A stretch of DNA of 64,000 nucleotides from an uncultured bacterium. GTDB taxonomy: Bacteria; Patescibacteriota; Minisyncoccia; UBA6257; GWB1-50-10. The number at the start of each line of letters is the position of its first letter. The stretch's first letter is position 1. The notes beneath the pieces were generated by a model. The model was not told the DNA's origin. It did no database searches and worked only from the letters and a program-made list of their open reading frames with translations. The stretch covers positions 523 to 64,522 of the forward strand of contig CAIKKG010000024.1 of the NCBI GenBank assembly GCA_903827975.1, given 5' to 3'. The position numbers were made by a program, and so were the translations under genes. Of the stretch, positions 47,999 to 64,000 are shown in pieces.

Positions 47999-49069
47999 TT
48001 ACTTATTAGCAAAAGGATTTTTTACTCCTAAAACTTCGAAATGAAGATGGCACCCAGTAGGGCCGTCTGCATTCCCTGTACTTCCAACCAATCCAATCTG
48101 CTCTCCCTGAGTTACTGAATCACCAACCTTCACAAGCGCCTTGCTAAGGTGTGCATAGCGAGTCCTAACTCCGTTTGAGTGTTCAATAAGAACAAATAAT
48201 CCGTATCCATTATTCCATCCAGTAGAGCCATCGCTCTTAAGTGTACTGTCCTCTATTACCATTCCTCCTGCTGATGCCTTCACTGCAATGCCACACTTAT
48301 TTCCGATATCAACCGCGTTTACATCATGCAGCTCTCCAAAATTCATACCAGCAAGTGGAAGTGTAAAGAAATTTTTTAATTCCTGGAGTTTCGCGGTTGT
48401 CTGCTCTGCTGATATTTTAGCCGTTGGTTTTACAGCTGGTAATATCAGAGAACCACTTCCATCTGCCATGATTTTCTGGTAATTAGGGTTATATCTCTTT
48501 ATTGAGTCGATCTCTGTTGAATACTTCTTTGCTACACCCTCTAAAATATCACCCTCTTTTACGGTGTATAGCACACCAGACACTGGAAGTATTGATAATA
48601 CTTGGCCAACTTTTACAGCTTTTATACCACCATTCGCGAACTTTATTGTATCTGCTGAAATATTAAATTTTATTGCGATTTTTGCGATTGTGTCTCCTTT
48701 CTTCACCTTATACTGCTTAATGCCATTTTCTGATGCAGAAAAATCTGGCGTCGGATTTGATGTGGCAATTGCGGTAGCGCTCTCATTATCAACAAAAACC
48801 CTCCTTAGGTCAGTTGTATATGTCGGGGACACACCTAACCCAGACTGTAAAGATGGGTCGGCCTCTATTGAGATTGGGCCACCCTTATTTCCGAAATTAA
48901 GCTCTTCGTGAGCATAATAAAAAACCGCATTTGTGTGCGATAAAGGCATGAGATTCAGAATAAGCATGGTGGTCACGAAAATTAACGACCATATATTGGT
49001 CGTTTTTGATATCTCCTTTATTAGTGGTTCTATTTTCCTGACTATCAATTGTATTTTAGGAATAAACAC
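47999..49069 (-). CDS. LysM-repeat M23-family peptidoglycan endopeptidase
   Basis: There are two LysM repeats (YKVKKGDTIAKIAIKF; YTVKEGDILEGVAKKY) and an M23 catalytic region ending ...GPTGCHLHFEV. Confidence 0.8.
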   Translation of the reverse strand: MFIPKIQLIVRKIEPLIKEISKTTNIWSLIFVTTMLILNLMPLSHTNAVFYYAHEELNFGNKGGPISIEADPSLQSGLGVSPTYTTDLRRVFVDNESATAIATSNPTPDFSASENGIKQYKVKKGDTIAKIAIKFNISADTIKFANGGIKAVKVGQVLSILPVSGVLYTVKEGDILEGVAKKYSTEIDSIKRYNPNYQKIMADGSGSLILPAVKPTAKISAEQTTAKLQELKNFFTLPLAGMNFGELHDVNAVDIGNKCGIAVKASAGGMVIEDSTLKSDGSTGWNNGYGLFVLIEHSNGVRTRYAHLSKALVKVGDSVTQGEQIGLVGSTGNADGPTGCHLHFEVLGVKNPFANK

Positions 49070-49606: not shown

Positions 49607-50425
49607 ATGCGACAAAAATTTGGTCAGCACTTTCTTAAGAGTTCTGAAAAATTAAAATTAATATCTGAAGCAATACAAATTCAGGCGGGGGATACGGTAA
49701 TCGAGATAGGCCCAGGCCACGGCGAGCTAACCAACTTTATTATTGCTGAATTAGAGGGCCTCAAAAATACCAAGCTTATTCTGATTGAGCGCGATATTTT
49801 ACTTATCCCAGAGCTTCGTAGGAAGTTTAGCACCGCACTTTCTATTGGTAGATTAGAAATTATTGAGGGGGATGCTTTGTTTGAACTTCCGAAACTTGCT
49901 GAGAGGGAGAATATAAAAAATCTATCCTATAAACTGGTTGGTAATATTCCTTATTACATAACTGGATCTCTATTTCGAGTCATTGAGGGGTTGAAGAATA
50001 AGCCCTCGCTTGCAGTCTTCACACTTCAAAAAGAGGTTGCTATTCGCGTAACAGCTGACTCACCAAAAATGAACCTGCTTTCTGCGAGTGTTAAATACTT
50101 TGCGAACTCTGAGCTATTGATGATTTTATCAAAGGACTTATTCTCCCCGCCTCCGGAGGTTGATTCTGCGGTGATCCGCCTTGTAACACTTCCCGAGCCG
50201 GATGTAACACCACCAGAATTTTATTATACTTTTATAAAAGCTCTTTTTAAGCAGCCTAGAAAAACTCTTTTAAATAATCTAAAGGAGCTTCCTGAGTTTG
50301 GCGCGCTCTCACATGATGAACAGGAAAAATTACTTAGTGGTTTTGGTGTTTTGGAAAGCTCAAGACCGCAAGATATGCACATAAGCGCTATAAAACAATT
50401 AGCGAATGTGTTGTATACTAAATAG
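49607..50425 (+). CDS. rsmA: 16S rRNA (adenine1518/1519-N6)-dimethyltransferase
   Basis: MRQKFGQHFLKS followed by a SAM-binding VIEIGPGHGELT motif. Confidence 0.9.
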   Translation: MRQKFGQHFLKSSEKLKLISEAIQIQAGDTVIEIGPGHGELTNFIIAELEGLKNTKLILIERDILLIPELRRKFSTALSIGRLEIIEGDALFELPKLAERENIKNLSYKLVGNIPYYITGSLFRVIEGLKNKPSLAVFTLQKEVAIRVTADSPKMNLLSASVKYFANSELLMILSKDLFSPPPEVDSAVIRLVTLPEPDVTPPEFYYTFIKALFKQPRKTLLNNLKELPEFGALSHDEQEKLLSGFGVLESSRPQDMHISAIKQLANVLYTK

Positions 50426-50430
50426 TATAA

Positions 50431-51186
50431 ATGCAGAAAAGAACTATTATTTCTCTCGGCATTCTTCTAACCGGCATAGTGAGCATGGTCTGGCTTTTTT
50501 CAGGAGAAAAAACAAAGGCTGGTAATTTCGACATATCTATTTCTGCGGGTGGAACAGATGATGCACGTTTTGTTGGTGTTGGTGGTGGGACTGGTGATTA
50601 CTCAAATTCACAAAACAGAACGGAAGACGTTGCAAAGGAGTATGGACTTGAGATGTTAAAAATAAATCCGCAAGGAATTGGAAATGTTACTGGTGTAGCC
50701 CTTCCAAATGATGCGGTTTTAAATGGTATTGTGAATCGAGCGGCTTCCGCAAAAATTTTAGTTAAGCTTTTCACCAAGACAGATTTTAAGATTGTCAGTG
50801 ACTCTTCCTCTAGCACAATAAAAAATTATATTGGCTCACTCGTTGATGAAGAAAACAAAGCAGCCGCAGCTACGGCTCTTTTTTACAAAGTACTTGGTAG
50901 CTTCGTAACTGAGAGTGATTCTCAGAAACTTATTTCTATAAATAATGATATTTCAATACATATAAATGAATTACTTGCGATGCAAGTTCCAGAATCATGG
51001 GCCACTTTTCATCTTGGCCTATTAAATTTTTGGGAGTCAAAGTTAACCTATTCAAAGTCATTTCTTAATAAAGGGAGTGATCCGTTATTGGCGGCAAGTG
51101 CCTCACAAAATCTTTTGCTGTTACTAGATCAAGAAAAAAGTATTAGGACTGATTTTTTAAGTCGCGTTAGTGGAATTAAATTGTAA
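50431..51186 (+). CDS. Hypothetical membrane-anchored protein, the first gene of the T4SS-like operon
   Basis: The 251-aa protein has an N-terminal TM anchor, and the gene is tightly packed with those downstream. Confidence 0.45.
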   Translation: MQKRTIISLGILLTGIVSMVWLFSGEKTKAGNFDISISAGGTDDARFVGVGGGTGDYSNSQNRTEDVAKEYGLEMLKINPQGIGNVTGVALPNDAVLNGIVNRAASAKILVKLFTKTDFKIVSDSSSSTIKNYIGSLVDEENKAAAATALFYKVLGSFVTESDSQKLISINNDISIHINELLAMQVPESWATFHLGLLNFWESKLTYSKSFLNKGSDPLLAASASQNLLLLLDQEKSIRTDFLSRVSGIKL

Positions 51187-51188
51187 AT

Positions 51189-53198
51189 ATGCAGACCAGA
51201 AAAATAAGAATACTCACATCATTTCTCGCGGTTGTAATTCTCTCGAACTCGCTTTTTTTTGCGTTTCCTCAAAAATCTCTTGCCCAGACTAGTGCTGATG
51301 GTGGTGCTCAGGAAATTGCAGCAAAGTGTGGACTCACAAACGCTACTACGTGGATAGCGGGTAAGCTTTCGGCGGTTGTAACTGGTGCGACTCCAAACAC
51401 TCAGGTTTCTGTAAAGAATGATGAGGCAGCCTCAACCTCTCTTTGGGATGGAGCAAAAGAATGTCTCCTTGCGCTTTGGAATGCTCTTATAAAGATAGCT
51501 TTTAACATGTTTAAAAAGCGCTTACTTGATAGGCTCACCGATGATCTGGTTGGTTGGATAAGTGGAAAAACTGGCAAGCCAAAGTTTATCACTAATTATA
51601 AGGACATGTTAAAGAACACGGCTGATGCTGCTCTTGGAGATACTATTCGTGCAATCGGAGCTGGAAAGTTGTGCGACAATAAACTTAGTGTTCAGCTTCA
51701 ATTAAATCTTCAAGCACTGGATTCTCAAGATTTTTCTAAGAGAGTGGACTGCACGCTTTCTCAGGTTGTTAAGAACATTGGGGCTTTTGGAGATAATTTT
51801 AAAAATGGAAGTTGGATTGGGTATCAGGAGGTCAATTCGCTTCAAAATAATAAGTATGGACTACAACTTTTGGCTATGGATAATCTCGCGCGAGGTCAGG
51901 CAAAGCAGACCGATCTTTTAAAAACCGAGATGGGGGGCTCAAACGGATTCCTATCCACTAAACTTTGTAATAAATGGACAATAATAGGACAAAAGAATGA
52001 TTGTAATACAGGAAGGGGAACGCTCTGCCCAGCTGAGATTGAGCTTGGCTCATTTATCTCTCCACGTGGCAATGATACATACCTAGATGCGGAACAGGAT
52101 GGCTCAGCACTAGCCATAAAATTCCAAGGCGACTCATCAATGAGCTCTTCACTAGCTCAGGTTCCTCCTAATGCTCAGATTAATAAGCTTTTGTGTAAGC
52201 CGGAGGACCAGAAAATAACAACACCTGGATCAACGCTCGCCGCCTCACTAAGCAACTCTCTTGATGCTGATACGAGGAAATTAATAGGTGCTGACGACCT
52301 AACTCCATATTTAGCAAAAATATTTGATGCTGCTTTTAATCGTGTAATAAAAGAGGGTGTTAGAGGGCTCGCAGAAGCTAGCACGAATATTTTCAGTCAG
52401 AGTAGTACTGGCACACAACCACAGTCATATCAAACGAGCTCTCAGTGCTCCTCAATTCGTACCAATGGAACAACTCAATGCTCATTAATACTCACTCAGG
52501 GCGCTCCACAGTGTATTGCCGAGAAGAAGCTTGGTGCTACGGATGCTGATTATGCAAAATGTAATTTAGCCGCTAAGAATGATTGTAATGCCGCCGCGGC
52601 ATCTGCTTGTGATCGCGATGCTATCTATGTTGGTTATGGAGGTTCAATGGTTAGCACCGCCACATCGGACTTACAGTTAAATTCTGTGTCCACATCTACA
52701 ATCTATAACCTTGCGTCCACAACACTTAATACAATTAATACAAAGATTCCACCAATACTTGCTGAGGTTCAGGCTTTGTATGTTCAGTACCAAGGAAGCT
52801 TGATGCTTCTCTCTAGTTGTGAAAAGGCCAAAACCCTACCAAAAGAGGTGTGCCCAACTACATCACTACTTCTAACTCAGTTAATACCCGTCTCCTCACG
52901 CATTAATGGTGTTCCGATGGCAGTAACAACATATAAAAATGAATTGTTGGAAATTATTGGAAAATTAAACAACCCATCACTTAAAGCTGCTGATGCATCA
53001 TATCTTTCTGTTCGGGTCCAGCTTATTTCAACTGATATAACAGATACAATAGACAAATTTACTTCTGATAAATCCATGTTGACGGCTATAAACTTAACAG
53101 AAGAATATAATTCATGCTCAGCAGCAATACCATCAGCGAATAAATATTACATATGCCCAGGCACTAGCACTCCGGGTGGTGGTCCGATTCAGCCGTAA
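51189..53198 (+). CDS. Large exported Cys-rich protein of the T4SS-like operon
   Basis: The 669-aa protein has a signal peptide (…SLAQTSA) and more than 20 Cys residues spread through a Ser/Thr/Asn-rich sequence. Confidence 0.45.
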   Translation: MQTRKIRILTSFLAVVILSNSLFFAFPQKSLAQTSADGGAQEIAAKCGLTNATTWIAGKLSAVVTGATPNTQVSVKNDEAASTSLWDGAKECLLALWNALIKIAFNMFKKRLLDRLTDDLVGWISGKTGKPKFITNYKDMLKNTADAALGDTIRAIGAGKLCDNKLSVQLQLNLQALDSQDFSKRVDCTLSQVVKNIGAFGDNFKNGSWIGYQEVNSLQNNKYGLQLLAMDNLARGQAKQTDLLKTEMGGSNGFLSTKLCNKWTIIGQKNDCNTGRGTLCPAEIELGSFISPRGNDTYLDAEQDGSALAIKFQGDSSMSSSLAQVPPNAQINKLLCKPEDQKITTPGSTLAASLSNSLDADTRKLIGADDLTPYLAKIFDAAFNRVIKEGVRGLAEASTNIFSQSSTGTQPQSYQTSSQCSSIRTNGTTQCSLILTQGAPQCIAEKKLGATDADYAKCNLAAKNDCNAAAASACDRDAIYVGYGGSMVSTATSDLQLNSVSTSTIYNLASTTLNTINTKIPPILAEVQALYVQYQGSLMLLSSCEKAKTLPKEVCPTTSLLLTQLIPVSSRINGVPMAVTTYKNELLEIIGKLNNPSLKAADASYLSVRVQLISTDITDTIDKFTSDKSMLTAINLTEEYNSCSAAIPSANKYYICPGTSTPGGGPIQP

Positions 53199-53206
53199 AT
53201 ATAACA

Positions 53207-55237
53207 ATGAAGCTTCTCAATAAAAAACTGTTACTGGTTTTAGGAATCGTTCTTCTTTCTGGACTTGTCGTCCCTCATTTAGCGCATGCAGCTGGTATGA
53301 TGGAACAGGCACTTACAGATGTAGTAACCTATACCTTTAAATTCATTACCTATATTTTTGCATATATAGGTTCGGTATTATTCAGTTTTGCCGGTATGCT
53401 AGTGGACTACACACTGAGACTTAATATGACTGTTGGGGATACTGAAAAGAATCTTCTTCTTGGTGTTGGTTGGGGCATCACAAAAGATATTGCAAACCTT
53501 GGCTTCGTGCTCGCTATGATTATTATTGCGTTCGCAACAATAATCGGAAATGAAAGTTATGGATACAAAAAATTACTTGCTAATTTAATTGGTGCTGCGA
53601 TTGCTGTAAACTTCAGTCTTGCAATTGCTGGGGTATTTATCGATTTCTCTCATGTTATTACTGTATTTTTTATAAATAAAATAAGTACTACTGGCGCTTC
53701 TGGCATGGCTGAGCAGATGGCAAATGCGTTTAGCGTTCAGAATTTTCTATTAGAGGACTCTAACAATCCACTACCTCCGAATCCGTCTGAGGAGAGTGGG
53801 ACAATGTCACGCCTAAGTACTGCGGTTGTAATCTCTCTTGTGAGTTTAGTCTTTGTACTTGTGTTCACAATAACGGCTGCAATTATATTTTTAATATTTG
53901 CAATAATGCTTCTCGCTCGATATGTCTGGCTATCATTCCTTCTTATTATCGCTCCGATAACATGGTTGTTCTGGGTTATCCCTGGAATGAGTGGTAAGTT
54001 CGGAGAGTGGTGGAGTAACTTCTTAAAACAGGTTTTCTTTGCACCAGCAATGACGTTCTTCCTATATCTTGCTTTTATGAGTGTGCAGGGTCTTGCCGAA
54101 AAACCAGCCACGGGTGCTTTCTTCAAAGATGGCGCGCTTGCAGCAATAATAAGTTCTGGAGCTAATATGGTTGTTTTGATTGGAATCCTTGTTGGTGGAC
54201 TTATAACAGCTGAAAAAATGGGCGCAACTGGCGCAAAAATGGGAATGGAGAGATTGTCTGCTTTGGGTGGCGCCTCAAAGGATTATGCAGGGAGTATAGC
54301 TAAGAAATATGGTAAGAAGGTTGCAGAAACAAAAGCTGTTAAGAGTGTGCAGAGTGCAGCCCTTCGTGTTGGCTCTAGCGCAAGGAAGCTTGCTGAATAT
54401 AAACCAACAAGTAGAACTGGTAAGATTTTGACCGCTGTAACAGGGCTAGGTCTTGCAAAGTCTGTTGTTGGACTTGGAGGAGAAAAATTACAAAATATTG
54501 GTGGCGTGCCAGTAAATCCGGACTCGCTTGGTTCAAGGGCCTGGTCTGCGGTCTGGGGTAAGTATCCTGATAATCGCGCTCAATCTAAGAAGGATGCTGA
54601 TGAGAGGGAACAAAACAAGGGAGCTGAGGAGCTCACGGCTGATCATGAGAAACTACGCACCGAGCGACAGAGGCTTGTTGATAATGGCGTAAGTGAGAAA
54701 GACCCAAGAATTGTCACTATGGATAAGCAACTTGGAAAGCTAAAATCAAGTGTTGTAGAGAAAACAAGCCTACCAAAAGACGTAGAAGGATTAATTAACA
54801 AAGAAAAGGAATTGAAGTTGAAGTTGGAAGAATTGGCAGCTGGTGGTAGTGACATCTCTGTGATTAAAAAGCAACTTGAGAAAGCAACTGATGAACTTGA
54901 TAAGGCTCAAAGAGAGGACTCGAAAATAACACCGGCTAGTAGGGCGTGGAAGAGCCACCGCATTACAAAAGAAGCCACTAGAATGGCTGGTATAATAGGC
55001 GGAAAAATAAAACCTGGTGAGCCAGACCCAGACACAGACACAGATTCCGCTATAGCACAAGAGAAATTATGGCGCGAAATTGATACGCAGAAGAAGCCTA
55101 ACTCCAAACCAGCTTGGGCGGAACGCGTAATTAAACTCGACGCTGCTCTAACAGAAGCTACTGCTGCCCACCTTCCACCTGACGCACTTAAGTACATTGG
55201 GGATTTAAAGGCTGAGGCGATTGATAAGAGTACATAA
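53207..55237 (+). CDS. VirB6/TrbL-like polytopic inner-membrane channel protein with a C-terminal coiled-coil charged tail
   Basis: The 676-aa protein has a signal or TM N-terminus, at least 6 TM helices across the first 350 residues, then a K/E-rich coiled coil. Confidence 0.5.
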   Translation: MKLLNKKLLLVLGIVLLSGLVVPHLAHAAGMMEQALTDVVTYTFKFITYIFAYIGSVLFSFAGMLVDYTLRLNMTVGDTEKNLLLGVGWGITKDIANLGFVLAMIIIAFATIIGNESYGYKKLLANLIGAAIAVNFSLAIAGVFIDFSHVITVFFINKISTTGASGMAEQMANAFSVQNFLLEDSNNPLPPNPSEESGTMSRLSTAVVISLVSLVFVLVFTITAAIIFLIFAIMLLARYVWLSFLLIIAPITWLFWVIPGMSGKFGEWWSNFLKQVFFAPAMTFFLYLAFMSVQGLAEKPATGAFFKDGALAAIISSGANMVVLIGILVGGLITAEKMGATGAKMGMERLSALGGASKDYAGSIAKKYGKKVAETKAVKSVQSAALRVGSSARKLAEYKPTSRTGKILTAVTGLGLAKSVVGLGGEKLQNIGGVPVNPDSLGSRAWSAVWGKYPDNRAQSKKDADEREQNKGAEELTADHEKLRTERQRLVDNGVSEKDPRIVTMDKQLGKLKSSVVEKTSLPKDVEGLINKEKELKLKLEELAAGGSDISVIKKQLEKATDELDKAQREDSKITPASRAWKSHRITKEATRMAGIIGGKIKPGEPDPDTDTDSAIAQEKLWREIDTQKKPNSKPAWAERVIKLDAALTEATAAHLPPDALKYIGDLKAEAIDKST

Positions 55238-55308
55238 TTTAGTGGTAGTTGGTAAAATAATTATAGTACTTACCTAATCTAAAATAGTAATCACACAAAA
55301 CAGATAAT

Positions 55309-56439
55309 ATGGCATTCGAATATCCATCAAAAAACGCTTTTCTTAATAGGTATAAAAATCTACACGAAACACTTCGTGAGGTTGTCGACTCCTCTGAAAC
55401 AAATAGGGTTTTTAAGAGTATCTGTAGGGAGCATTATCTAAATAGTGAGAAGGAGGAGCTTCTTGGCGCATTGGTTTCTTTTGTTCTCATGGGTTTCTTA
55501 CCACAGGAAGACCTTGCAAATGAGATAGGTGAGCAGTTGTTCTTGAATGATAGGCACTCAAAGGAGCTTGCGAATGAGATTAATACTCGCGTTTTCTACA
55601 CAATAAAAGATGAGATAGCGTCAGAATACAACCCAACTAGAGATGAGGGTGAACAACCATCAGAGATTGGTGTTCAGCAATATGAGGCTATAGAGCCTGA
55701 GCCGTTAGCGGTTGAAAGCGAGACTGAGGAGATTGAGCTTCCTAATACATTTGGTGAGAATATTCGCGCTAGCGCGGGTGATACAAGTGATATGCCGGTC
55801 TCACTACAGATTAACGAAGATGGTGGGCCAGCAGTGCTTCAAGAAGGTGCTTCGTTTTTCAAAAAATCCACAGAGCAGGCAGAGAGAAGGGCTCCAATTG
55901 CTCCGTTCAAGATGTTCGCCTCATCATCAGAGTCTACGGATGCGAGACCAACTGTAAGAGTAAAAGTTGAAACCCCACGCTCTTTTGGTTGGCCGGCAGA
56001 AAAAAAAGAGGAGGAGAGCGTCGTTCATTATAATGAGTCTGCGTTTCCGACTGACCAGCAGGCCTCTGAAGGTTTAATTCACCTTGAGGCAATTCAAAAT
56101 ATTACTCCTGATACCACGAAAAGTTCTCCAATCCCAGCAGTTGAAACACCAGTTGTGAGTCAGGATGTCGTGAATACAGAGCTTCCTGCGGTTGTGAGCC
56201 AAAATACTGAGGATAAGAAGGCGTGGTCAATAAAATCAATATTCAAAAAAGAAAATACCAACGAGAAGAAAATATCTTTTAATGAGATGCCGGCAACCGA
56301 TACAGATCAACATATTCCTGTTCAGATAACAACGAGTGTTTCAAAAGATGCTCCTTTTGTTATTTCTACAGAGGAATCTTCCAAAGAAGTAGATAAAAAA
56401 GATCCGGCGCTCGATGGTAATGTGGTTCATCTTAAGTAG
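55309..56439 (+). CDS. Hypothetical acidic protein of the T4SS-like operon
   Basis: The 376-aa protein is Glu/Asp/Ser/Thr-rich with no TM helix. Confidence 0.4.
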   Translation: MAFEYPSKNAFLNRYKNLHETLREVVDSSETNRVFKSICREHYLNSEKEELLGALVSFVLMGFLPQEDLANEIGEQLFLNDRHSKELANEINTRVFYTIKDEIASEYNPTRDEGEQPSEIGVQQYEAIEPEPLAVESETEEIELPNTFGENIRASAGDTSDMPVSLQINEDGGPAVLQEGASFFKKSTEQAERRAPIAPFKMFASSSESTDARPTVRVKVETPRSFGWPAEKKEEESVVHYNESAFPTDQQASEGLIHLEAIQNITPDTTKSSPIPAVETPVVSQDVVNTELPAVVSQNTEDKKAWSIKSIFKKENTNEKKISFNEMPATDTDQHIPVQITTSVSKDAPFVISTEESSKEVDKKDPALDGNVVHLK

Positions 56440-56447
56440 TTTTTAAT

Positions 56448-56930
56448 ATGGCAGAATTCCAAGTTCCGCAATTTATCGAGGAGAAACCAAAAATCGTTGG
56501 CCCACTAACCATCGTTCAGTTTTTGTATATTGGTTCTGGTGCGGCAATTTCTCTTATAAGTTATTACGCTTTTAATACTATTTTATGGTTAATTATCTCA
56601 ATAATAGTTGTTGGAATATCAGTTGCGCTCGCCTTTGTTAAGGTTAATGGCCAGGACCTGCCAGTTGTTGCTTTGTCTGCTTTTCAGTTTATATGGGGCC
56701 CAAGAAAATACACTTGGCAAAGAGCGATGGAGCAGACGACTTTTGATACTTCTGATTTGGAGAAGATTCAGGTAATAAGAAAAAATATCAGCATTCAAGA
56801 TAAAATTAAATCTATTGCGCTTGGTATTACAACTGGAAGTATTGAGAGAACGAAAGCCGGCGGTACAAAATTTCAGTCTGTTACCTACATAACAGGGGAG
56901 CATAAGGTTGCGAAGAGAGTTGATTACTAA
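56448..56930 (+). CDS. VirB3/PrgI-like small two-TM protein
   Basis: The 160-aa protein starts MAEFQVPQFIEEKPKIVGPLTIVQFLYIGSGAAISLISYY… with two adjacent TM helices, and sits immediately upstream of the VirB4-type ATPase as in canonical T4SS loci. Confidence 0.5.
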   Translation: MAEFQVPQFIEEKPKIVGPLTIVQFLYIGSGAAISLISYYAFNTILWLIISIIVVGISVALAFVKVNGQDLPVVALSAFQFIWGPRKYTWQRAMEQTTFDTSDLEKIQVIRKNISIQDKIKSIALGITTGSIERTKAGGTKFQSVTYITGEHKVAKRVDY

Positions 56931-56959
56931 ACCGCGTAAATACGGTACAATATTAATAC

Positions 56960-57598
56960 ATGGCTGATATAAGCATCCCAACACAACAATTCGTTGACGT
57001 AAAAGAAGTACGCGATGGCGTTTTGTATTTAAAGTCTGGTGGTATCCGCAAAATACTTATCGTCGGCGGAATTAACTTTGATCTCAAATCAGAAGGTGAG
57101 CAAAATACAATACTTGCAAGTTTCCAGAATTTTTTAAATACAATTGATTTTCCTATACAACTTCTCATTCACTCAAGAAAGGTTAATGTTGAGAGTTATC
57201 TTTCGAAAATGGTTCAGTTAAAAGATAAAGAGGATAATGAACTTTTAAAAATACAGATTGGTGAATATATAAACTTCATACGTTCTTTTGTTGATGAGAA
57301 CGCAATAATTAGTAAGGTATTTTTAGTTGTTGTCCCATATGAGTCTGCTTCTGCGAAATCAAGTTCATCTGGTTTTTTTGATATTTTTAAAAAACAGACG
57401 AAGGTTGAGATTAATGAGTCCGAAAATGCTGCAATAGAGCAACTTAATCATAGGGTTTCTGAGGTGACCGACGGATTAATGCAGGTTGGTCTTAATGTTA
57501 CATCACTTAATAGTGATGAGATTACTGAGTTGTTTTACAATATGTACAATCCACAACTAGCCGAGAAGAAAAATATGGACTTAATAAAAGAATCATAA
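56960..57598 (+). CDS. VirB4/TraE-type conjugation-family ATPase, N-terminal domain ORF
   Basis: MADISIPTQQFVDVKEVRDGVLYLKSGGIRKILIVGGINFDLKSEGEQNTILASFQNFLNTIDFPIQLLIH matches the N-terminal membrane-proximal domain of Gram-positive-type VirB4 (TcpF/PrgJ-like). It ends with TAA-GAA-TAA, in frame with the next ORF. Confidence 0.6.
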   Translation: MADISIPTQQFVDVKEVRDGVLYLKSGGIRKILIVGGINFDLKSEGEQNTILASFQNFLNTIDFPIQLLIHSRKVNVESYLSKMVQLKDKEDNELLKIQIGEYINFIRSFVDENAIISKVFLVVVPYESASAKSSSSGFFDIFKKQTKVEINESENAAIEQLNHRVSEVTDGLMQVGLNVTSLNSDEITELFYNMYNPQLAEKKNMDLIKES

Positions 57599-57607
57599 GA
57601 ATAAAAA

Positions 57608-59359
57608 ATGAAGATACAAATTCCACAAACTTATAAACCATCATCGAAAGACCTACCAAATATTGTAGCGCCGTCAGGTCTTGAGGTAGATGCTAATTAT
57701 TTGAAACTAGGTGATTACTTTGTAAAAACTATTTTTATTTTTACGTACCCTCGCTTCGTGGTTTCTGGTTGGTTCTCTCCTATTATAAATATTTCGGAGA
57801 TGATGGATATCTCTATTTTCGTTCACCCAATGGAGACTGGCGCGGCCTTGCGCGACCTACAAAAGAAGGTTGCTCAAGTGCAGTCTGAGCTTTCTGAGAA
57901 GGAATCGAAGGGTATGGTTCGCGATCCACTACTTGAAACAGCTTATCAGGACATTGAGAGTCTAAGAGATTCATTGATGCAGGCGAGGGAGAAACTTTTT
58001 AAGGTTGGTGTTTATATTACTTTATATGGGCAGAGCCTTGAGGCGCTTACAAAATTGGAGAATGAGATAGAATCCTTACTTGAAAGTAAGTTGATATATG
58101 TTAAACCCGCGCTTTTCAAACAACTTGAAGGTTTTAATTCTATTCTTCCACTTTGTACTGATAAACTACTAACACACACACCACTTAATTCTGGGCCAGC
58201 ATCGTCCCTTTTTCCCTTCGTCTCTCCAGACCTTACATCAGATAAGGGAATTATGTATGGGATTAATATACACAACAGCAGCCTCGTTATATTCGATCGC
58301 TTCTCCCTTGAAAATGCCAACCAGGTTATATTTGCAAAATCAGGTGCTGGTAAATCATACACTGCAAAACTTTTGATTCTTCGCTCTCTCATGGTTGGAA
58401 CTAATGTTATTGTTATTGATCCTGAGAATGAGTATCAGAATCTTTCAAGCGCTATTGGTGGAAGTTATTTTAAAATCTCACTTACTTCATCGAGCCACAT
58501 TAATCCCTTTGACATACCAATCATACCGGAGGGGGATGAGCCGGCGGACGTTTTTAAATCACACATATTAAATTTGTCTGGCTTGGTTAAATTAATGCTT
58601 GGCGCAATATCACCTGAAGAGGATGCTCTACTTGATAAGGCTCTTACTGATACATATGCATCGCGCGATATTACCGCGGAAAACTTTGGTCAAACAAAGG
58701 AAATGGATGCACCACTCTTAGAAGATTTGCAGGTTATCTTACAAAACAACAAGGGTGGTTTCCAACTTGCACAACGCCTTGAAAAATTCACACATGGAAC
58801 ATATGCGGGTTTTACAAATGCTCCAACAAACGTTGATTTTAAAAATCGTTTGATTGTTTTCTCGATTCGCGACCTTGATGAGGAGTTGCGACCAATCGCG
58901 ATGTATATTGTTTTGAACTTTGTTTGGAATCTTGTTCGTGCTGAGCTTCGACCACGATTTCTTATTGTTGATGAGGCGTGGATTATGATGAAGTTTAAAG
59001 ACAGCGCCTCTTTCTTGTTTGGACTTGTTAAGCGTGCTCGTAAATACTACCTTGGAATCACAACCATTACACAGGACGTTGAGGACTTTTTGAAGTCTGA
59101 GTATGGTAAGCCTATCGTCACAAACTCAGCAACCCAGATTTTAATGAAACAATCTCCAGCATCTATTGATTCAGTTGCTAGTGCGTTTAGTCTTACAGAG
59201 GGTGAGCGCGGCTTACTACTTGAGGCGAGTGTTGGAGAGGGATTGTTTTTTGCGGGCGCAAAACATGTTGCTATTAAAATTATTGCGTCATACACAGAGG
59301 ATCAAATAATAACAACAAAACCTGATCAGATTTTAGAAATTAAGGGTCTAAAACAATAA
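57608..59359 (+). CDS. VirB4/TraE-type ATPase, C-terminal ATPase domain ORF
   Basis: Walker A AKSGAGKSYT, Walker B FLIVDEAW and C-terminal motifs are present. The frame is the same as the preceding ORF. Confidence 0.7.
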   Translation: MKIQIPQTYKPSSKDLPNIVAPSGLEVDANYLKLGDYFVKTIFIFTYPRFVVSGWFSPIINISEMMDISIFVHPMETGAALRDLQKKVAQVQSELSEKESKGMVRDPLLETAYQDIESLRDSLMQAREKLFKVGVYITLYGQSLEALTKLENEIESLLESKLIYVKPALFKQLEGFNSILPLCTDKLLTHTPLNSGPASSLFPFVSPDLTSDKGIMYGINIHNSSLVIFDRFSLENANQVIFAKSGAGKSYTAKLLILRSLMVGTNVIVIDPENEYQNLSSAIGGSYFKISLTSSSHINPFDIPIIPEGDEPADVFKSHILNLSGLVKLMLGAISPEEDALLDKALTDTYASRDITAENFGQTKEMDAPLLEDLQVILQNNKGGFQLAQRLEKFTHGTYAGFTNAPTNVDFKNRLIVFSIRDLDEELRPIAMYIVLNFVWNLVRAELRPRFLIVDEAWIMMKFKDSASFLFGLVKRARKYYLGITTITQDVEDFLKSEYGKPIVTNSATQILMKQSPASIDSVASAFSLTEGERGLLLEASVGEGLFFAGAKHVAIKIIASYTEDQIITTKPDQILEIKGLKQ

Positions 59360-59362
59360 TAA

Positions 59363-59752
59363 ATGCCTAAAAAAACGCCGCAAACCCCGCAGAAAAAAAT
59401 GGGTGAGCCACTAGCGGAACCAAAGTTTGGTATGGTTGAGCTATTTTTAGGTTCTTTTTTTTGTCTTCTACTTGATTTGTTATCAGCCATCACAGCAATA
59501 GCTTTTGTGGGTCTTTTCGTAAAATCTTTCTCGTGGCTTATTTTTACTTTTTGGTTTAAAATTAAGAAGTGTCATGTTGCAGATAGTCTTATTGGAAGAT
59601 TTCTTGTTCCAGTATTTGTAAATTTAATTCCAATTGTTCCAACTTTAGCCGCAACGTTTCTTGTCTCCGCATATATGGAGAATCACCCAGAAAAGTTTGC
59701 CGCCGTTGAACAACTGACCCCAGCAACTGCAAATGTTCCCATTAAAAAATAA
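59363..59752 (+). CDS. Hypothetical small membrane protein of the T4SS-like operon
   Basis: The 129-aa protein has 3 TM helices. Confidence 0.4.
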   Translation: MPKKTPQTPQKKMGEPLAEPKFGMVELFLGSFFCLLLDLLSAITAIAFVGLFVKSFSWLIFTFWFKIKKCHVADSLIGRFLVPVFVNLIPIVPTLAATFLVSAYMENHPEKFAAVEQLTPATANVPIKK

Positions 59753-60452
59753 AACTATGAGATTTTTTTTCAAAATAGTAATCACAGCATTTTCTTTTAT
59801 CGCTCTTGTTTCAACAACAAATGTTTTTGCTGCTCCTGTTGTTACCCCTCAAATTCCACCGCGTTTAATTCTTTCTTGGAGTGCGTCGAGCATTCACCCG
59901 TCTAACTATAAGGGCAAGGTTCTTCCTTCTTTAAACACGCCAATAGTTGTTTCTGTTGAGTTGCTCGCAAATGGTAAGTTTGCCGATATATCTAAAACAA
60001 CAATTATTTGGAGAAAGTCTGGAGAGGTGATTAAGCGTGGTGTCGGATTAAAACAAATATTTATTGCACCTGACTCAAATGATTCAAGTGATGTTTTTAT
60101 AGATGCTGAGGTTGATTTTGCTAACAACGTTGTGGAACAGTCGCTTTTGATCCCCGTTGTAAAACCTTTTGTTTCTATCGAGATACCATATCCAAACTCT
60201 GTTGTTCGTGGTGATTCTGATGTAACAATTAGAGCGACCCCTTATTTTTTCAATGCCTCTTCTCTTGATGATCTTGTTTTTTACTGGCAGATTGGTGATA
60301 TAAAAAAGAATATGGAACAGAACAACTCCATCACACTTAAGGTTTCTGGTGCTTATTCCTCCCAGGATAGCCTTCCTATAACCTCGTATGTGCAGAGCAG
60401 GGATGTGTTAACTGATATAATAGTAACTAACAAACCGTTATTTGTTCGATAA
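59733..60452 (+). CDS. Hypothetical exported protein of the T4SS-like operon
   Basis: The 239-aa protein has a signal peptide (…TNVFAAP). Confidence 0.45.
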   Translation: MFPLKNKTMRFFFKIVITAFSFIALVSTTNVFAAPVVTPQIPPRLILSWSASSIHPSNYKGKVLPSLNTPIVVSVELLANGKFADISKTTIIWRKSGEVIKRGVGLKQIFIAPDSNDSSDVFIDAEVDFANNVVEQSLLIPVVKPFVSIEIPYPNSVVRGDSDVTIRATPYFFNASSLDDLVFYWQIGDIKKNMEQNNSITLKVSGAYSSQDSLPITSYVQSRDVLTDIIVTNKPLFVR

Positions 60453-60458
60453 TCACGC

Positions 60459-61670
60459 ATGAAACCAATTTATAAAATTCTTATTACTTTAGTTGTAATA
60501 ATCATCGTCATATTCCTTTCATATTTCTTGTGGACAAAGTTTTTTGCGCCAAAGTCTGTGACGCCACAAGAGCCTGGAACTGGTGTGATAATTACACCTC
60601 CTAGTGATAATAATGGTCAGACTGGAGGAGGTGATAATCCTCCGGGTGGCGCGCCAGGCACATCAACACCTACAACATCTAACGTGGATGAGTATTTATT
60701 TAAAAAACTTTCTGATAAGCCGGCTCTGGCTTTTTGGGTCTCTATAACTGGTAATACGGCTTTTTATGTTTCTGAGTCTGGCGTAGTTATGGAGGCTAAG
60801 GATGGAGAGGACTCTGTAGTTTCAAAACAACCAATCTCTAATTTTATAAGTTTAGAGGCGTCTCCATCTGGTGAGAAGGTTATTCTTTCCTTTGGAAGTC
60901 CGTCAAATATTCAATTGGCAATTTTTGATTCTGTTGATAAGGTTTTGCGCCCACTTCCAAAAGAAATCTTAAGTGCTTCGTGGGCTGGAACTGATAATCA
61001 GTTGGTTGGTGTCACACAACAAAATGATGTAACTCTACTCTCATTAATAAATATCTCAAAACAACCCTACACTTACAAGACGCTTGTAACAAATTTTTCT
61101 ATAAAGGATGCTTTGTTTTCTGCCAAGTCAGCAACTGAGATTTTAATCTCTGAAAAACCTTCATCTCACTCTCTATCTGGCGTCTGGCAACTAGATACTG
61201 ACACCGGCGTTATGACACTTGTTGTGAGCCCTGCTCTTGGTTCTTTTATAAGGTGGGCTAGTGGAAAGGATTTAATGTTTAAGTTCGCATCACCAAATAA
61301 GTTTTCAATACTGGATCGTTCCTTTGGTGAAATATCGCCGGTGTTATTTACAACGCTACCAAATAAATGTGATGGTGGTCTTGATGTGATTTATTGTTTT
61401 ATTCCTAAAGACAAGGGTGTTTTCTCAAATACAAACTCGATGCCTGACGATTATTTTATGAATAATATCTTCACTAGTGACGATTTTTATAAAATCTCTC
61501 CGTCCTCCGGCATTGAATCACTTATAATGGCTGGTGGGTCGGGTAAGATTCCGGTTATTGATGCGGATAATGTCTCATATGCAAACTCATCAACTTATTT
61601 TATTAATAAGTATGATAATTATGTTTATGCAATTCAAAAAACAACAAATGAAGTTATTAATGATTACTAA
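60459..61670 (+). CDS. Hypothetical membrane-anchored extracytoplasmic protein of the T4SS-like operon
   Basis: The 403-aa protein has an N-terminal TM anchor and a Gly/Pro/Thr linker. Confidence 0.45.
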   Translation: MKPIYKILITLVVIIIVIFLSYFLWTKFFAPKSVTPQEPGTGVIITPPSDNNGQTGGGDNPPGGAPGTSTPTTSNVDEYLFKKLSDKPALAFWVSITGNTAFYVSESGVVMEAKDGEDSVVSKQPISNFISLEASPSGEKVILSFGSPSNIQLAIFDSVDKVLRPLPKEILSASWAGTDNQLVGVTQQNDVTLLSLINISKQPYTYKTLVTNFSIKDALFSAKSATEILISEKPSSHSLSGVWQLDTDTGVMTLVVSPALGSFIRWASGKDLMFKFASPNKFSILDRSFGEISPVLFTTLPNKCDGGLDVIYCFIPKDKGVFSNTNSMPDDYFMNNIFTSDDFYKISPSSGIESLIMAGGSGKIPVIDADNVSYANSSTYFINKYDNYVYAIQKTTNEVINDY

Positions 61671-63081
61671 AAAGGTTTTACTGTCCTTGTTTGTGGTTGT
61701 TGCTGTGTTTGCTCCAATGTACTTATTTGCAGCGGAAACAGCATCGACTGGCCCAACACCGATTGTTGTTACAATGTCATCACCAATGCCGTGCATTCCA
61801 GTTCCTTTCATGGGTGGGAACACCTGCTCACAACCCGCAGGAGACTCAGCTATTCAGACTTATATAAAACTTTTGTATCAATTCGCGGTTGGAATCTCTG
61901 GTATTGTTGCTGTAGGAATGATTGTGTGGGGATCTATTCAGATTTCTTTATTTAGCGAGAGTATAACCCAGAAAAGTGAGGGGAGGGATAAAATTACGTC
62001 AGCAATAATTGGTGTTATTCTTCTTCTTGGTTCTTATTTGCTACTTAATACTATAAACCCGAGAATTGTTCAGCTTGGTCAGACACTTACAACTGTTAAA
62101 CAAGCAAAGCCGTCATCAGACATTGCAAAGGTTGGTGTGTCGAGTTGTGGAACATCAACTTTAATATCAGGAGCGGTTGGTACACCAATAGATTTTAATG
62201 TTAAACCAGACGCTGGTAATACTTGTAAATATAGAAAGCTTTTTGTATATAGAGATGGTTTTACAATTTCTGGTATGGATGCTGCATATTATGGTGGTTC
62301 TGGTGATGTTCAAATAGCGGCGCAGTCTGTTATTTGGCTCTACCCTTATCGCGTGAAGGGGGCTGTGGAAACATTTGATAGCAACGGCACACTAGCAAGC
62401 GCTAAGTGTATTGTATATGCATATAAAGAGCCTAGTATGACGAGTATTCGTTTTACAAACCTACAAAATACAATTGAGCCTTGTGTGTTAAGTGACAAAC
62501 AGGAAGATGGGTATGTTGGTGGTCCTGGGTCAGGAGTTGGTAACGTTTCTGGAGATGTAAAGGATTTAGCCAATCAATTAGGTAGTCCAAACTCTACTGT
62601 GAAATTCTCTACGGACAATTCTTGTAATCCTCCCGGCTCTGCCGCAAAAAATATTCTTTATTCTATGCAAAACGGAACGGCGCCTTTTGTCTGCTCTGCT
62701 GGTTGTCAAACAAACAAAACAGAGTGCACACAAAATGGGGCTTATCCTGAGGCTTCTATATTAAAAGCAATTATAGCCCTGCAAAATTCTAAAACAACAG
62801 TTTCGACGGTCACTAGTTTAACTGGTGGTGATCATTCGGCTAATTCTGGGCATTACCAAGGTACAGCTTTTGATCTCAGTGTAGGATCAAGCAACACAGA
62901 TGATTGGAATAATGTTATGAAAATTTTAAATACTTCGGGTGTTACAGCATACTGCGAATACCAAGGACCTGGGGAGGATAAAGCTAAACTTCACACAAAA
63001 TGTGCAACTGGAATAAGTGGTGGGCATCTCCATGTACAGGTCAATAAAAACAGTAATGCTATAAACAATGGGACTCCATAA
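61648..63081 (+). CDS. Fusion protein with an N-terminal VirB2/TrbC-like pilin module and a C-terminal M15-family zinc peptidoglycan peptidase domain
   Basis: After the signal peptide comes the conserved hairpin AVGISGIVAVGMIVWGSIQISLFSESITQKSEGRDKITSAIIGVILLLGSYLLLNT, paralogous to 38463, 38893 and 39598. The C-terminus has SGHYQGTAFDL and GGHLHVQV (H-x6-D ... H-x-H zinc site of M15, VanY/endolysin type). The start was trimmed from the ORF-track 61534 to the ATG after the upstream stop. Confidence 0.6.
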   Translation: MKLLMITKKVLLSLFVVVAVFAPMYLFAAETASTGPTPIVVTMSSPMPCIPVPFMGGNTCSQPAGDSAIQTYIKLLYQFAVGISGIVAVGMIVWGSIQISLFSESITQKSEGRDKITSAIIGVILLLGSYLLLNTINPRIVQLGQTLTTVKQAKPSSDIAKVGVSSCGTSTLISGAVGTPIDFNVKPDAGNTCKYRKLFVYRDGFTISGMDAAYYGGSGDVQIAAQSVIWLYPYRVKGAVETFDSNGTLASAKCIVYAYKEPSMTSIRFTNLQNTIEPCVLSDKQEDGYVGGPGSGVGNVSGDVKDLANQLGSPNSTVKFSTDNSCNPPGSAAKNILYSMQNGTAPFVCSAGCQTNKTECTQNGAYPEASILKAIIALQNSKTTVSTVTSLTGGDHSANSGHYQGTAFDLSVGSSNTDDWNNVMKILNTSGVTAYCEYQGPGEDKAKLHTKCATGISGGHLHVQVNKNSNAINNGTP

Positions 63082-63083
63082 AA

Positions 63084-63118
63084 ATAAAAATCCCCGCTTT
63101 ATGCGGGGATTTTTTTAT
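63084..63118. terminator. Bidirectional terminator between the T4SS-like operon and jag
   Basis: AAAAATCCCCGCTTTATGCGGGGATTTTTTT. Confidence 0.75.
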
Positions 63119-63543
63119 GAGACGAATTTTATTACAACCCTTCTTTCTTTTCCCATTCCAGTACTCTCTGTTTTAAGTTCTGGATTTGCTGTTATCTCCA
63201 TATGCACCAGGCGCCTCTCATAGCCGTTCATTGCGGGTAGTTCGACTTCTTGCTTCGTTATCATCGCTTTGCGTGCTGCAGCCTTAACCAGCTCCACTAT
63301 TAGGCGTTCTCGCTCCTTCCTGTAGTAGTTTAGATCAATAACGTGGGGAATAAGACCCTCTTTCTTTAAAACGATGTTTATTATGTGATCTATTGCCGGA
63401 AGTATTATTTCTACATTATCGGACACAAACCTGTCGTCAATAAGAATGATAACTTTCCTGCGCTCCTCGTCGATAGCAACCTCGGCCTCCGGATACCCGA
63501 GAAGTGCTATTATCTCCTTTGTTTTCTCAATAATAGGGTTCAT
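63115..63543 (-). CDS. jag: Jag/KhpB-family RNA-binding protein with KH-like and R3H domains
   Basis: The 142-aa protein has the R3H motif NGYERRLVHMEI and sits downstream of yidC as in the rnpA-yidC-jag operon. Confidence 0.7.
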   Translation of the reverse strand: MNPIIEKTKEIIALLGYPEAEVAIDEERRKVIILIDDRFVSDNVEIILPAIDHIINIVLKKEGLIPHVIDLNYYRKERERLIVELVKAAARKAMITKQEVELPAMNGYERRLVHMEITANPELKTESTGMGKERRVVIKFVS

Positions 63544-63563
63544 TGGTTTAGGTTTACAGTATA

Positions 63564-64000
63564 CTACTCATCTTCAAATTTTGGCAATCTTTTGTTGATA
63601 TACATCTGTTGGAATATGGAGAAGATACCGGAAACGGTCCAATAAACACTGAGTGCTGTTGGTAGATTGATGAGTATTAGAAGTGTAAATGCGGGACCTA
63701 TTACAGACATTGTTTTGGCCATCCCAGCCATAGGGTTGTCACTTGTTGTGTCTTTCTGCGCGCCCATCATCAATTTTGTTTGGATATATTGTGCTATTCC
63801 AGCAACAATAGGCATTAAATAACCTTTTGTTCCTAGATCAATAAGCCCTAGGAATGTTGTTGTCGCAAAAATTCCAGTTGATAGCTCCTTTGAGAATACT
63901 TGGAATAAAACTATGAACACTGGAAGCTGAAGTATAAGCAATAAGATTCCTGAAAATGGGTTTAGTTTATATTTTTTGTATAAACTAAGCATCTCCTGTG
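63564..64000 (-). CDS. yidC: Membrane protein insertase YidC. The N-terminus lies beyond the window end.
   Basis: …QEMLSLYKKYKLNPFSGILLLILQLPVFIVLF… is the conserved YidC C1-loop to TM3-5 region, and the frame is open to the window edge. Confidence 0.75.
   Translation of the reverse strand, partial: QEMLSLYKKYKLNPFSGILLLILQLPVFIVLFQVFSKELSTGIFATTTFLGLIDLGTKGYLMPIVAGIAQYIQTKLMMGAQKDTTSDNPMAGMAKTMSVIGPAFTLLILINLPTALSVYWTVSGIFSIFQQMYINKRLPKFEDE

Follow-up and report, generated by a model that had tools for sequence, protein, structure and literature searches.

We examined a 64,000-nucleotide stretch of DNA from an uncultured member of the Patescibacteria (hereafter the window; contig CAIKKG010000024.1, positions 523 to 64,522), in which the VirB4 ATPase of a type IV secretion system (T4SS) is represented by two adjacent open reading frames (ORFs), ORF-N and ORF-C. 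We consider it very likely (probability roughly 0.93) that these genes belong to a standard Patescibacteria T4SS operon, that VirB4 is made as two polypeptides and that the apparatus is, by inference, functional. The two-gene arrangement itself has already been published. The additions of the present study are a collinear split VirB4 shown explicitly, uniform frame statistics across the junction, rare re-fusions of the two genes, and small genes lying between the halves.

The junction and the two predicted parts of VirB4

The two genes lie on the forward strand at 56960..57598 (ORF-N, 212 amino acids) and 57608..59359 (ORF-C, 583 amino acids), with both starts equal to 2 modulo 3 and thus in one frame. 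The sequence at 57590-57613 reads GAA TCA TAA GAA TAA AAA ATG AAG, placing one TAA at 57596-98, another at 57602-04 and the ATG of ORF-C at 57608. A preliminary description of this DNA had reported two ORFs of these lengths in a single frame, separated by TAA GAA TAA AAA and totalling ~795 amino acids, which is exact in both the sequence and the ORF list (sum 795). A single chain carrying the N-terminal and ATPase domains (~750-820 amino acids) is not present in the window, as the chain ends at the TAA at 57596-98 and restarts at the ATG at 57608. We read the junction (57596..57607, forward strand) as the natural stop of the N gene followed by a 9-nucleotide A-rich spacer and then the ATPase ATG. 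The second TAA is ordinary AT-rich spacer, because the terminus of ORF-C is likewise doubled (TAA TAA ATG). The C-terminus of ORF-N (...DLIKES) recurs in database protein P0009, and P0001 and P0003 stop at the equivalent residue. The start of ORF-C (MKIQIPQ) agrees with the consensus start MKIKIPQ of 583-residue homologues, and P0121, also 583 amino acids long and 100% identical to ORF-C, begins at the same ATG.

Based on its domain matches and motifs, ORF-C is a predicted VirB4-type ATPase of short form, comprising a middle domain and the P-loop ATPase domain. It is matched by Pfam (P-loop_TraG, E 4.5e-26; also AAA_10 and DUF87), by NCBIfam NF045971 (VirB4-like conjugal transfer ATPase, CD1110 family; 346.5 bits, above the cutoff of 325) and by the crystallised C-terminal domain of a VirB4 (PDB 4AG5, E 9e-46). 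The Walker A (AKSGAGKS, residues 243-250) and Walker B (LIVDEAW, residues 452-458) motifs are invariant in 22 homologues, with GAGKS and DEAW kept. Matches to full-length models span their late part only (NF045971, 183-734 of 752; VirB4_plasma, 291-893 of 894; TIGR00929, 240-723 of 792), and every one of the best 120 homologues is 577-595 amino acids long, at 74-100% identity.

ORF-N, a predicted soluble protein, is interpreted as a TrsD-like stand-alone N-terminal module of VirB4, such that ORF-N and ORF-C together are collinear with full-length VirB4, because its profile matches fill the missing front part and its modelled fold matches only TrwK/VirB4. The top NCBIfam match is TrsD/TraD NF041427 (E 6.4e-09, profile positions 29-200 of 201), and ORF-N covers the front of the VirB4 models (VirB4_plasma, 129-288 of 894; CD1110, 2-134 of 752; TIGR00929, 18-173 of 792). 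On NF045975 the coordinates of the two ORFs abut, ORF-N ending at 288 and ORF-C beginning at 291. An AlphaFold model of ORF-N made from 38 homologues (mean predicted local distance difference test score 74.4) was compared with the PDB using Foldseek; ranks 1-14 were all R388 TrwK/VirB4 chains with a probability of 1.00, and rank 15 had a probability of 0.06. This likeness came from the fold search only, and phmmer searches of ORF-N against PDB sequences returned no match even at E <= 10. No family was returned by a Pfam scan of ORF-N, the PF26593 (TraC-like) model being seemingly absent from the Pfam copy used; PF26593 is present in the precomputed annotation of all 120 best ORF-N homologues, including those 69-77% identical. 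The link to TrsD is drawn from the NCBIfam profile match and from BLASTP against pSK41 TrsD (E 1e-05 across 177 amino acids), not from hhalign, which aligned the ORF-N alignment weakly to the single pSK41 TrsD sequence (probability 6%, E 0.006, 63 columns).

A total of 1140 homologues of ORF-N were found, of which the best 120, from Patescibacteria/Parcubacteria metagenome-assembled genomes (MAGs), are all 152-232 amino acids long and all but one 209-232. The lone short protein, P0009 (152 amino acids), is a fragment, truncated where its 817-nucleotide contig ends, and the full-length homologues are 55-77% identical to ORF-N. An exhaustive profile search of 1.84 billion cluster representatives recovered 3186 N-module proteins; among the best 150 of these (50%-identity clusters), 149 are stand-alone and one is fused (P0243, 797 amino acids). 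In other Patescibacteria lineages the stand-alone module reaches 280-432 amino acids (P0276, P0279, P0282, P0306, P0311, P0316, P0317 and others) and carries long, disordered, low-complexity C-terminal tails rich in Pro, Glu, Thr and Gln. We considered whether these longer proteins are truncated fusions and rejected this, as the tails do not resemble ORF-C in sequence; they fit an N-module chain that ends at its own C-terminus.

Conservation of the split among Patescibacteria

The ATPase served as bait in collecting 80 loci from GTDB species representatives, which gives split and fused forms an equal chance of recovery. The N gene lies directly upstream of the ATPase gene in 79 loci, and the remaining locus is truncated, with 147 nucleotides of upstream sequence only. 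VirB4 is split in 76 of the 79 informative loci and encoded by a single ORF in three. Across the split loci the frame of the ATPase gene relative to the N-gene stop is uniformly distributed (0/+1/+2 in 20/31/25 loci; chi-square ~2.4, p ~0.3), the spacer ranges from -23 to +497 nucleotides and the stop codon is TAA, TGA or TAG. The genes overlap or are separated by no more than 12 nucleotides in 44 of the 76 (ATGA, an 8-nucleotide overlap, TAAnATG and similar), 26 have gaps of 23-163 nucleotides, values that depend on the start codon chosen, and six have an insertion of 427-497 nucleotides between the halves. The closest sequenced relative (L081; ORF-C 89% and ORF-N 74% identical) shares the TAA and the ATG AAG ATA CAA ATT CCA of the window, which lie there 169 nucleotides apart and in a different frame. 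That the two ORFs of the window share a frame is a one-in-three coincidence, given that orthologue frames are uniform and that the closest relative is in another frame. The preliminary description gave a weight to the common frame and to TAA-GAA-TAA that is unjustified, as frame and spacer vary freely among orthologues. We show here, at the level of sequence comparison, that the split is conserved and that both halves are under purifying selection, and the two-gene VirB4 arrangement is judged to be genuine, ancient and conserved.

The three single-ORF fusions of a TrsD-like module with VirB4 are L018:746-3106 (786 amino acids), L022:788-3160 (790 amino acids) and L040:1638-4022 (794 amino acids). 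Fused proteins match TIGR00929 (VirB4_CagE) in one stretch (L018, 6-726 of 792; P0243, 18-725 of 792), which confirms that the N and C proteins together correspond to one VirB4. By its ATPase, L018 is nearest to the split loci L015, L025 and L013, and L022 and L040 are mutually nearest. These relations suggest that re-fusion occurred secondarily at least twice within split lineages (L018, and L022 with L040), a count based on pairwise identities rather than on a tree.

Additional sequence is found between the halves at several loci. A small gene lies between the trsD-like gene and virB4 in six of the 80 loci (L012:3530-3995, L016:3561-3995, L039:3553-3983, L051:3446-3935, L063:2972-3420 and L078:3420-3920); its product is either a four-helix-bundle protein of the 23S_rRNA_IVP type (PF05635; E 3e-27 in L016) or a PDDEXK_3/GxxExxY protein (PF13366; E 1e-29 in L012). 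Repeated insertion of small genes at one intergenic site suggests that they are mobile or site-preferring. In the closest relative, ~160 inserted nucleotides separate the stop of the N gene from the ATPase ATG (L081:5832-6000; 9 nucleotides in the window), and this insertion is called as a 53-residue ORF. This interval is hairpin-rich, with several short GC-rich inverted repeats recognised by eye (e.g., TTAACGGGATGAATCCCGTTAG and CCGACCACCTGCGGTGGTCG), and may represent a structured RNA or a miniature repeat element.

Alternative explanations

The preliminary description had allowed for a recent nonsense pseudogenisation of a once-continuous virB4, inactivating the T4SS. The common frame and a total of 795 amino acids, near the 786-797 of the rare fused relatives, are in keeping with such an event, against which stand the positions of the stop and start, which coincide exactly with the natural termini conserved in hundreds of stand-alone homologues, and the strong conservation of both halves (ORF-N 55-77%, ORF-C 74-100% identity). 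The same break is moreover shared by 76 of the 79 informative orthologous loci and by 149 of the 150 cluster representatives, with its termini conserved, and is older than the divergence from relatives with other spacers and frames. We regard the chance of pseudogenisation as negligible, and that of a sequencing or assembly artefact creating false stops as equally so. The window is probably metagenome-derived, and nothing specific favours an artefact; it would need two separate stops and a correctly placed ATG, and both termini are reproduced in database proteins P0009 and P0121, as is the same architecture in ~76 independent MAGs. Programmed stop-codon read-through, which the same description had also mentioned, or a reassignment of TAA, would yield a fused VirB4 of 799 residues, and both the shared frame and the short 9-nucleotide spacer are compatible with it. 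It is nevertheless highly improbable: ribosomes would have to pass two TAA stops with a single codon between them, no conserved structure or context flanks the stop, and TAA terminates the other operon genes at lengths in line with their homologues. Neither the in-frame state (20/31/25), the spacer length (-23 to +497 nucleotides) nor the stop codon is conserved, and in the closest relative a 169-nucleotide spacer puts the two ORFs in different frames.

A different objection concerns the identity of ORF-N, which could be an autonomous accessory factor of the TrsD family, acting for instance in regulation or as a chaperone for assembly, and only a distant relative of the VirB4 N-terminus rather than the missing domain of the ATPase. 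The long disordered Pro/Glu/Thr-rich tails of the stand-alone protein in other lineages would fit this, as would the report that TrsD homologues of Gracilibacteria are not associated with virB4 (PMC12102498). We consider it unlikely on balance, since ORF-C does not have the region that ORF-N supplies and the profile coordinates of the two abut, natural fusions without a seam align to full-length VirB4 models as one uninterrupted match, all 79 informative loci have the two genes side by side, and the predicted fold of ORF-N matches the VirB4 N-terminal region only. Several points do weigh against a VirB4 made of two polypeptides. The arrangement is known in this organism from its genes alone, and TrsD has no assigned function in any system (PMC12102498), which also favours the accessory-factor explanation. 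ORF-N scores 35.9 bits on NF041427, below the NCBI membership threshold (curated cutoff 200), and is best described as a remote homologue of staphylococcal TrsD that does not reach family membership. The Foldseek match to TrwK is modest (template modelling score on the query 0.45-0.52, E ~1e-3, ~190 aligned columns). A genuine domain split with separately translated polypeptides, the other possibility named at the outset, is borne out by the orthologues (76 of 79 loci), and a VirB4 in two parts is the explanation we adopt below.

Operon context and translation

The T4SS operon spans ~50431-63081, and virB4 is encoded alongside other membrane components of the system, including small membrane proteins. 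Directly upstream of ORF-N, at 56448..56930 (forward strand), is a gene for a PrgI/VirB3-like small membrane protein of 160 amino acids (PF12666 PrgI, E 7.5e-07, 30 bits against a cutoff of 27) with approximately two transmembrane segments, the hydrophobic segments falling within residues 16-69. It occupies the same position as the gene preceding pSK41 trsD and the PrgI gene of L081-L083. Further upstream, at 53207..55237 (forward strand), a polytopic membrane protein of 676 amino acids is encoded, with ~7-8 hydrophobic segments in a hydropathy scan and no significant Pfam match; based on position and topology, it is a candidate VirB6-like channel subunit. The operon ends downstream of virB4 with a T4SS pilin-domain protein (61534..63081, forward strand; PF18895 T4SS_pilin, E 7.1e-08), which has the same position in L081. 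As listed, this ORF begins at GTG and overlaps the preceding ORF (60459-61670) by 137 nucleotides; the true start is probably a downstream ATG before a hydrophobic signal-like segment (MKLLMITKKVLLSLFVVVAVF...).

No Shine-Dalgarno motif was found before any of the eleven genes of the operon (50431-63081), which have A/T-rich leaders throughout and mostly begin 2-9 nucleotides past the preceding stop. This pattern points to Shine-Dalgarno-independent or coupled initiation across the whole operon. The preliminary description had looked to orthologues for a conserved split accompanied by a ribosome-binding site of its own; the split recurs many times over, and a missing site before ORF-C is uninformative because no gene of the operon has the motif.

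The operon is bracketed by ksgA (RrnaAD, E 2e-40; 49607-50425) and by minus-strand jag (R3H) and yidC (60KD_IMP; 63115-63992), and in the syntenic L081 rnpA and dnaA follow, placing the T4SS operon near a probable replication origin. Just upstream of the ksgA/T4SS block, on the minus strand, is a LysM and Peptidase_M23 cell-wall hydrolase (47999-49069), which may be the peptidoglycan hydrolase of the T4SS; domains of this type occur in VirB1-like candidates (PMC12102498).

Proposed assembly and implications

From the tightly packed gene order VirB3-like, TrsD-like and VirB4, we propose that a ~24-kDa TrsD-like protein would supply the first ~200 residues of a canonical VirB4, and a ~66-kDa protein the remainder, including the P-loop ATPase. 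Translation of the ATPase cistron would probably proceed by coupling or re-initiation at the A-rich 9-nucleotide junction, as elsewhere in the operon. The role suggested for the detached module follows from the observation that VirB4 N-terminal domains join the protomers of each dimer and touch VirB3 and VirB8 (2025 review, PMC12857230); its R388 counterpart would be the part of the N-terminal domain that makes these contacts and links VirB4 protomers. The two polypeptides are expected to form a non-covalent assembly in which the N-module docks the ATPase to VirB3 at the membrane, and the apparatus would then be functional. The T4SS is most likely intact, and for annotation we recommend treating it as such, with the ORFs named TrsD-like VirB4 N-terminal module and VirB4 ATPase rather than a disrupted gene.

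The rare fusions and the collinear profiles support the simple hypothesis that the TrsD family is the detached N-terminal module of VirB4. More tentatively, and with the odds rather against it, the break after ~200 residues may be a functional design feature common to Patescibacteria and to the monoderm T4SSs of the pGO1/pSK41 type. The N-module would then be separately dosed and act as an adaptor that can be exchanged, bridging VirB3 and the ATPase ring; it would be free to gain disordered tails that recruit partners, and would have been secondarily re-fused at least twice. If true, this adaptor role would give the TrsD family its first function; it is an interpretation placed on published gene inventories and involves no new element.

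Comparison with known systems

Single-chain VirB4 proteins (R388 TrwK, PDB 7O41/8RTB; CD1110; TIGR00929) share with the window collinear domains, intact ATPase motifs and, for ORF-N, a TrwK-like fold; they differ in that the chain of the window is broken after the first ~200 residues and divided between two cistrons. The fused proteins of L018, L022 and L040 and P0243 are ordinary full-length single-chain VirB4 proteins.

A closer counterpart of the junction is found in the TrsD/TrsE pair of pSK41 (TraD/TraE of pSK41/pGO1, MPF_FATA), in which a trsD of 227 amino acids is separated by 14 nucleotides from TrsE, a DUF87 ATPase of 672 amino acids, compared with 212 amino acids, 9 nucleotides and 583 amino acids in the window. 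The break falls at the equivalent place in the alignment, where ORF-N and TrsD align as far as their C-termini, with ...FYNMYN in ORF-N and ...FYALYD in TrsD near those ends, and residue 31 of ORF-C aligns with residue 49 of TrsE (E 1e-37). Identity between the proteins is just 22-24%, and the conjugation system of pSK41, which includes a relaxase and a coupling protein, is carried on a plasmid, that of the window on the chromosome.

The closest homologues of the window are all from Paceibacteria/Parcubacteria MAGs, and the nearest described system is the T4SS of Patescibacteria (the candidate phyla radiation) reported by Quinonero-Coronel et al. 2025 (PMC12102498). In that survey TrsD was the most abundant T4SS component in Patescibacteria, with 2,272 homologues of which 1,664 were VirB4-associated, and was confined outside Patescibacteria to the pGO1-type subclass of MPF_FATA. 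TrsD is described there as a remote homologue of the VirB4 N-terminus, and word searches of its text found neither a description of the pair as a split VirB4 nor a mention of rare fused forms. We take the homology statement through this paper only; the term "TrsD" is absent from the main text of Guglielmini et al. 2014 (PMC4027160), which is cited for it. The same study lists TrsD as essential in Ca. S. epibionticum ML1, and cites the T4SS as reported essential for epibiotic growth in the sole Patescibacterium tested. Most Patescibacteria T4SS clusters have no relaxase, and the cluster is often near dnaA, rnpA and ksgA, including in Paceibacteria (PMC12102498). No substantive difference separates the window from the system described there (VirB4, TrsD, PrgI/VirB3, VirB6 and VirB2-like pilins), with which it shares the set and order of PrgI-like, TrsD-like, VirB4 and T4SS_pilin genes and a location by ksgA and jag/yidC, near the origin.

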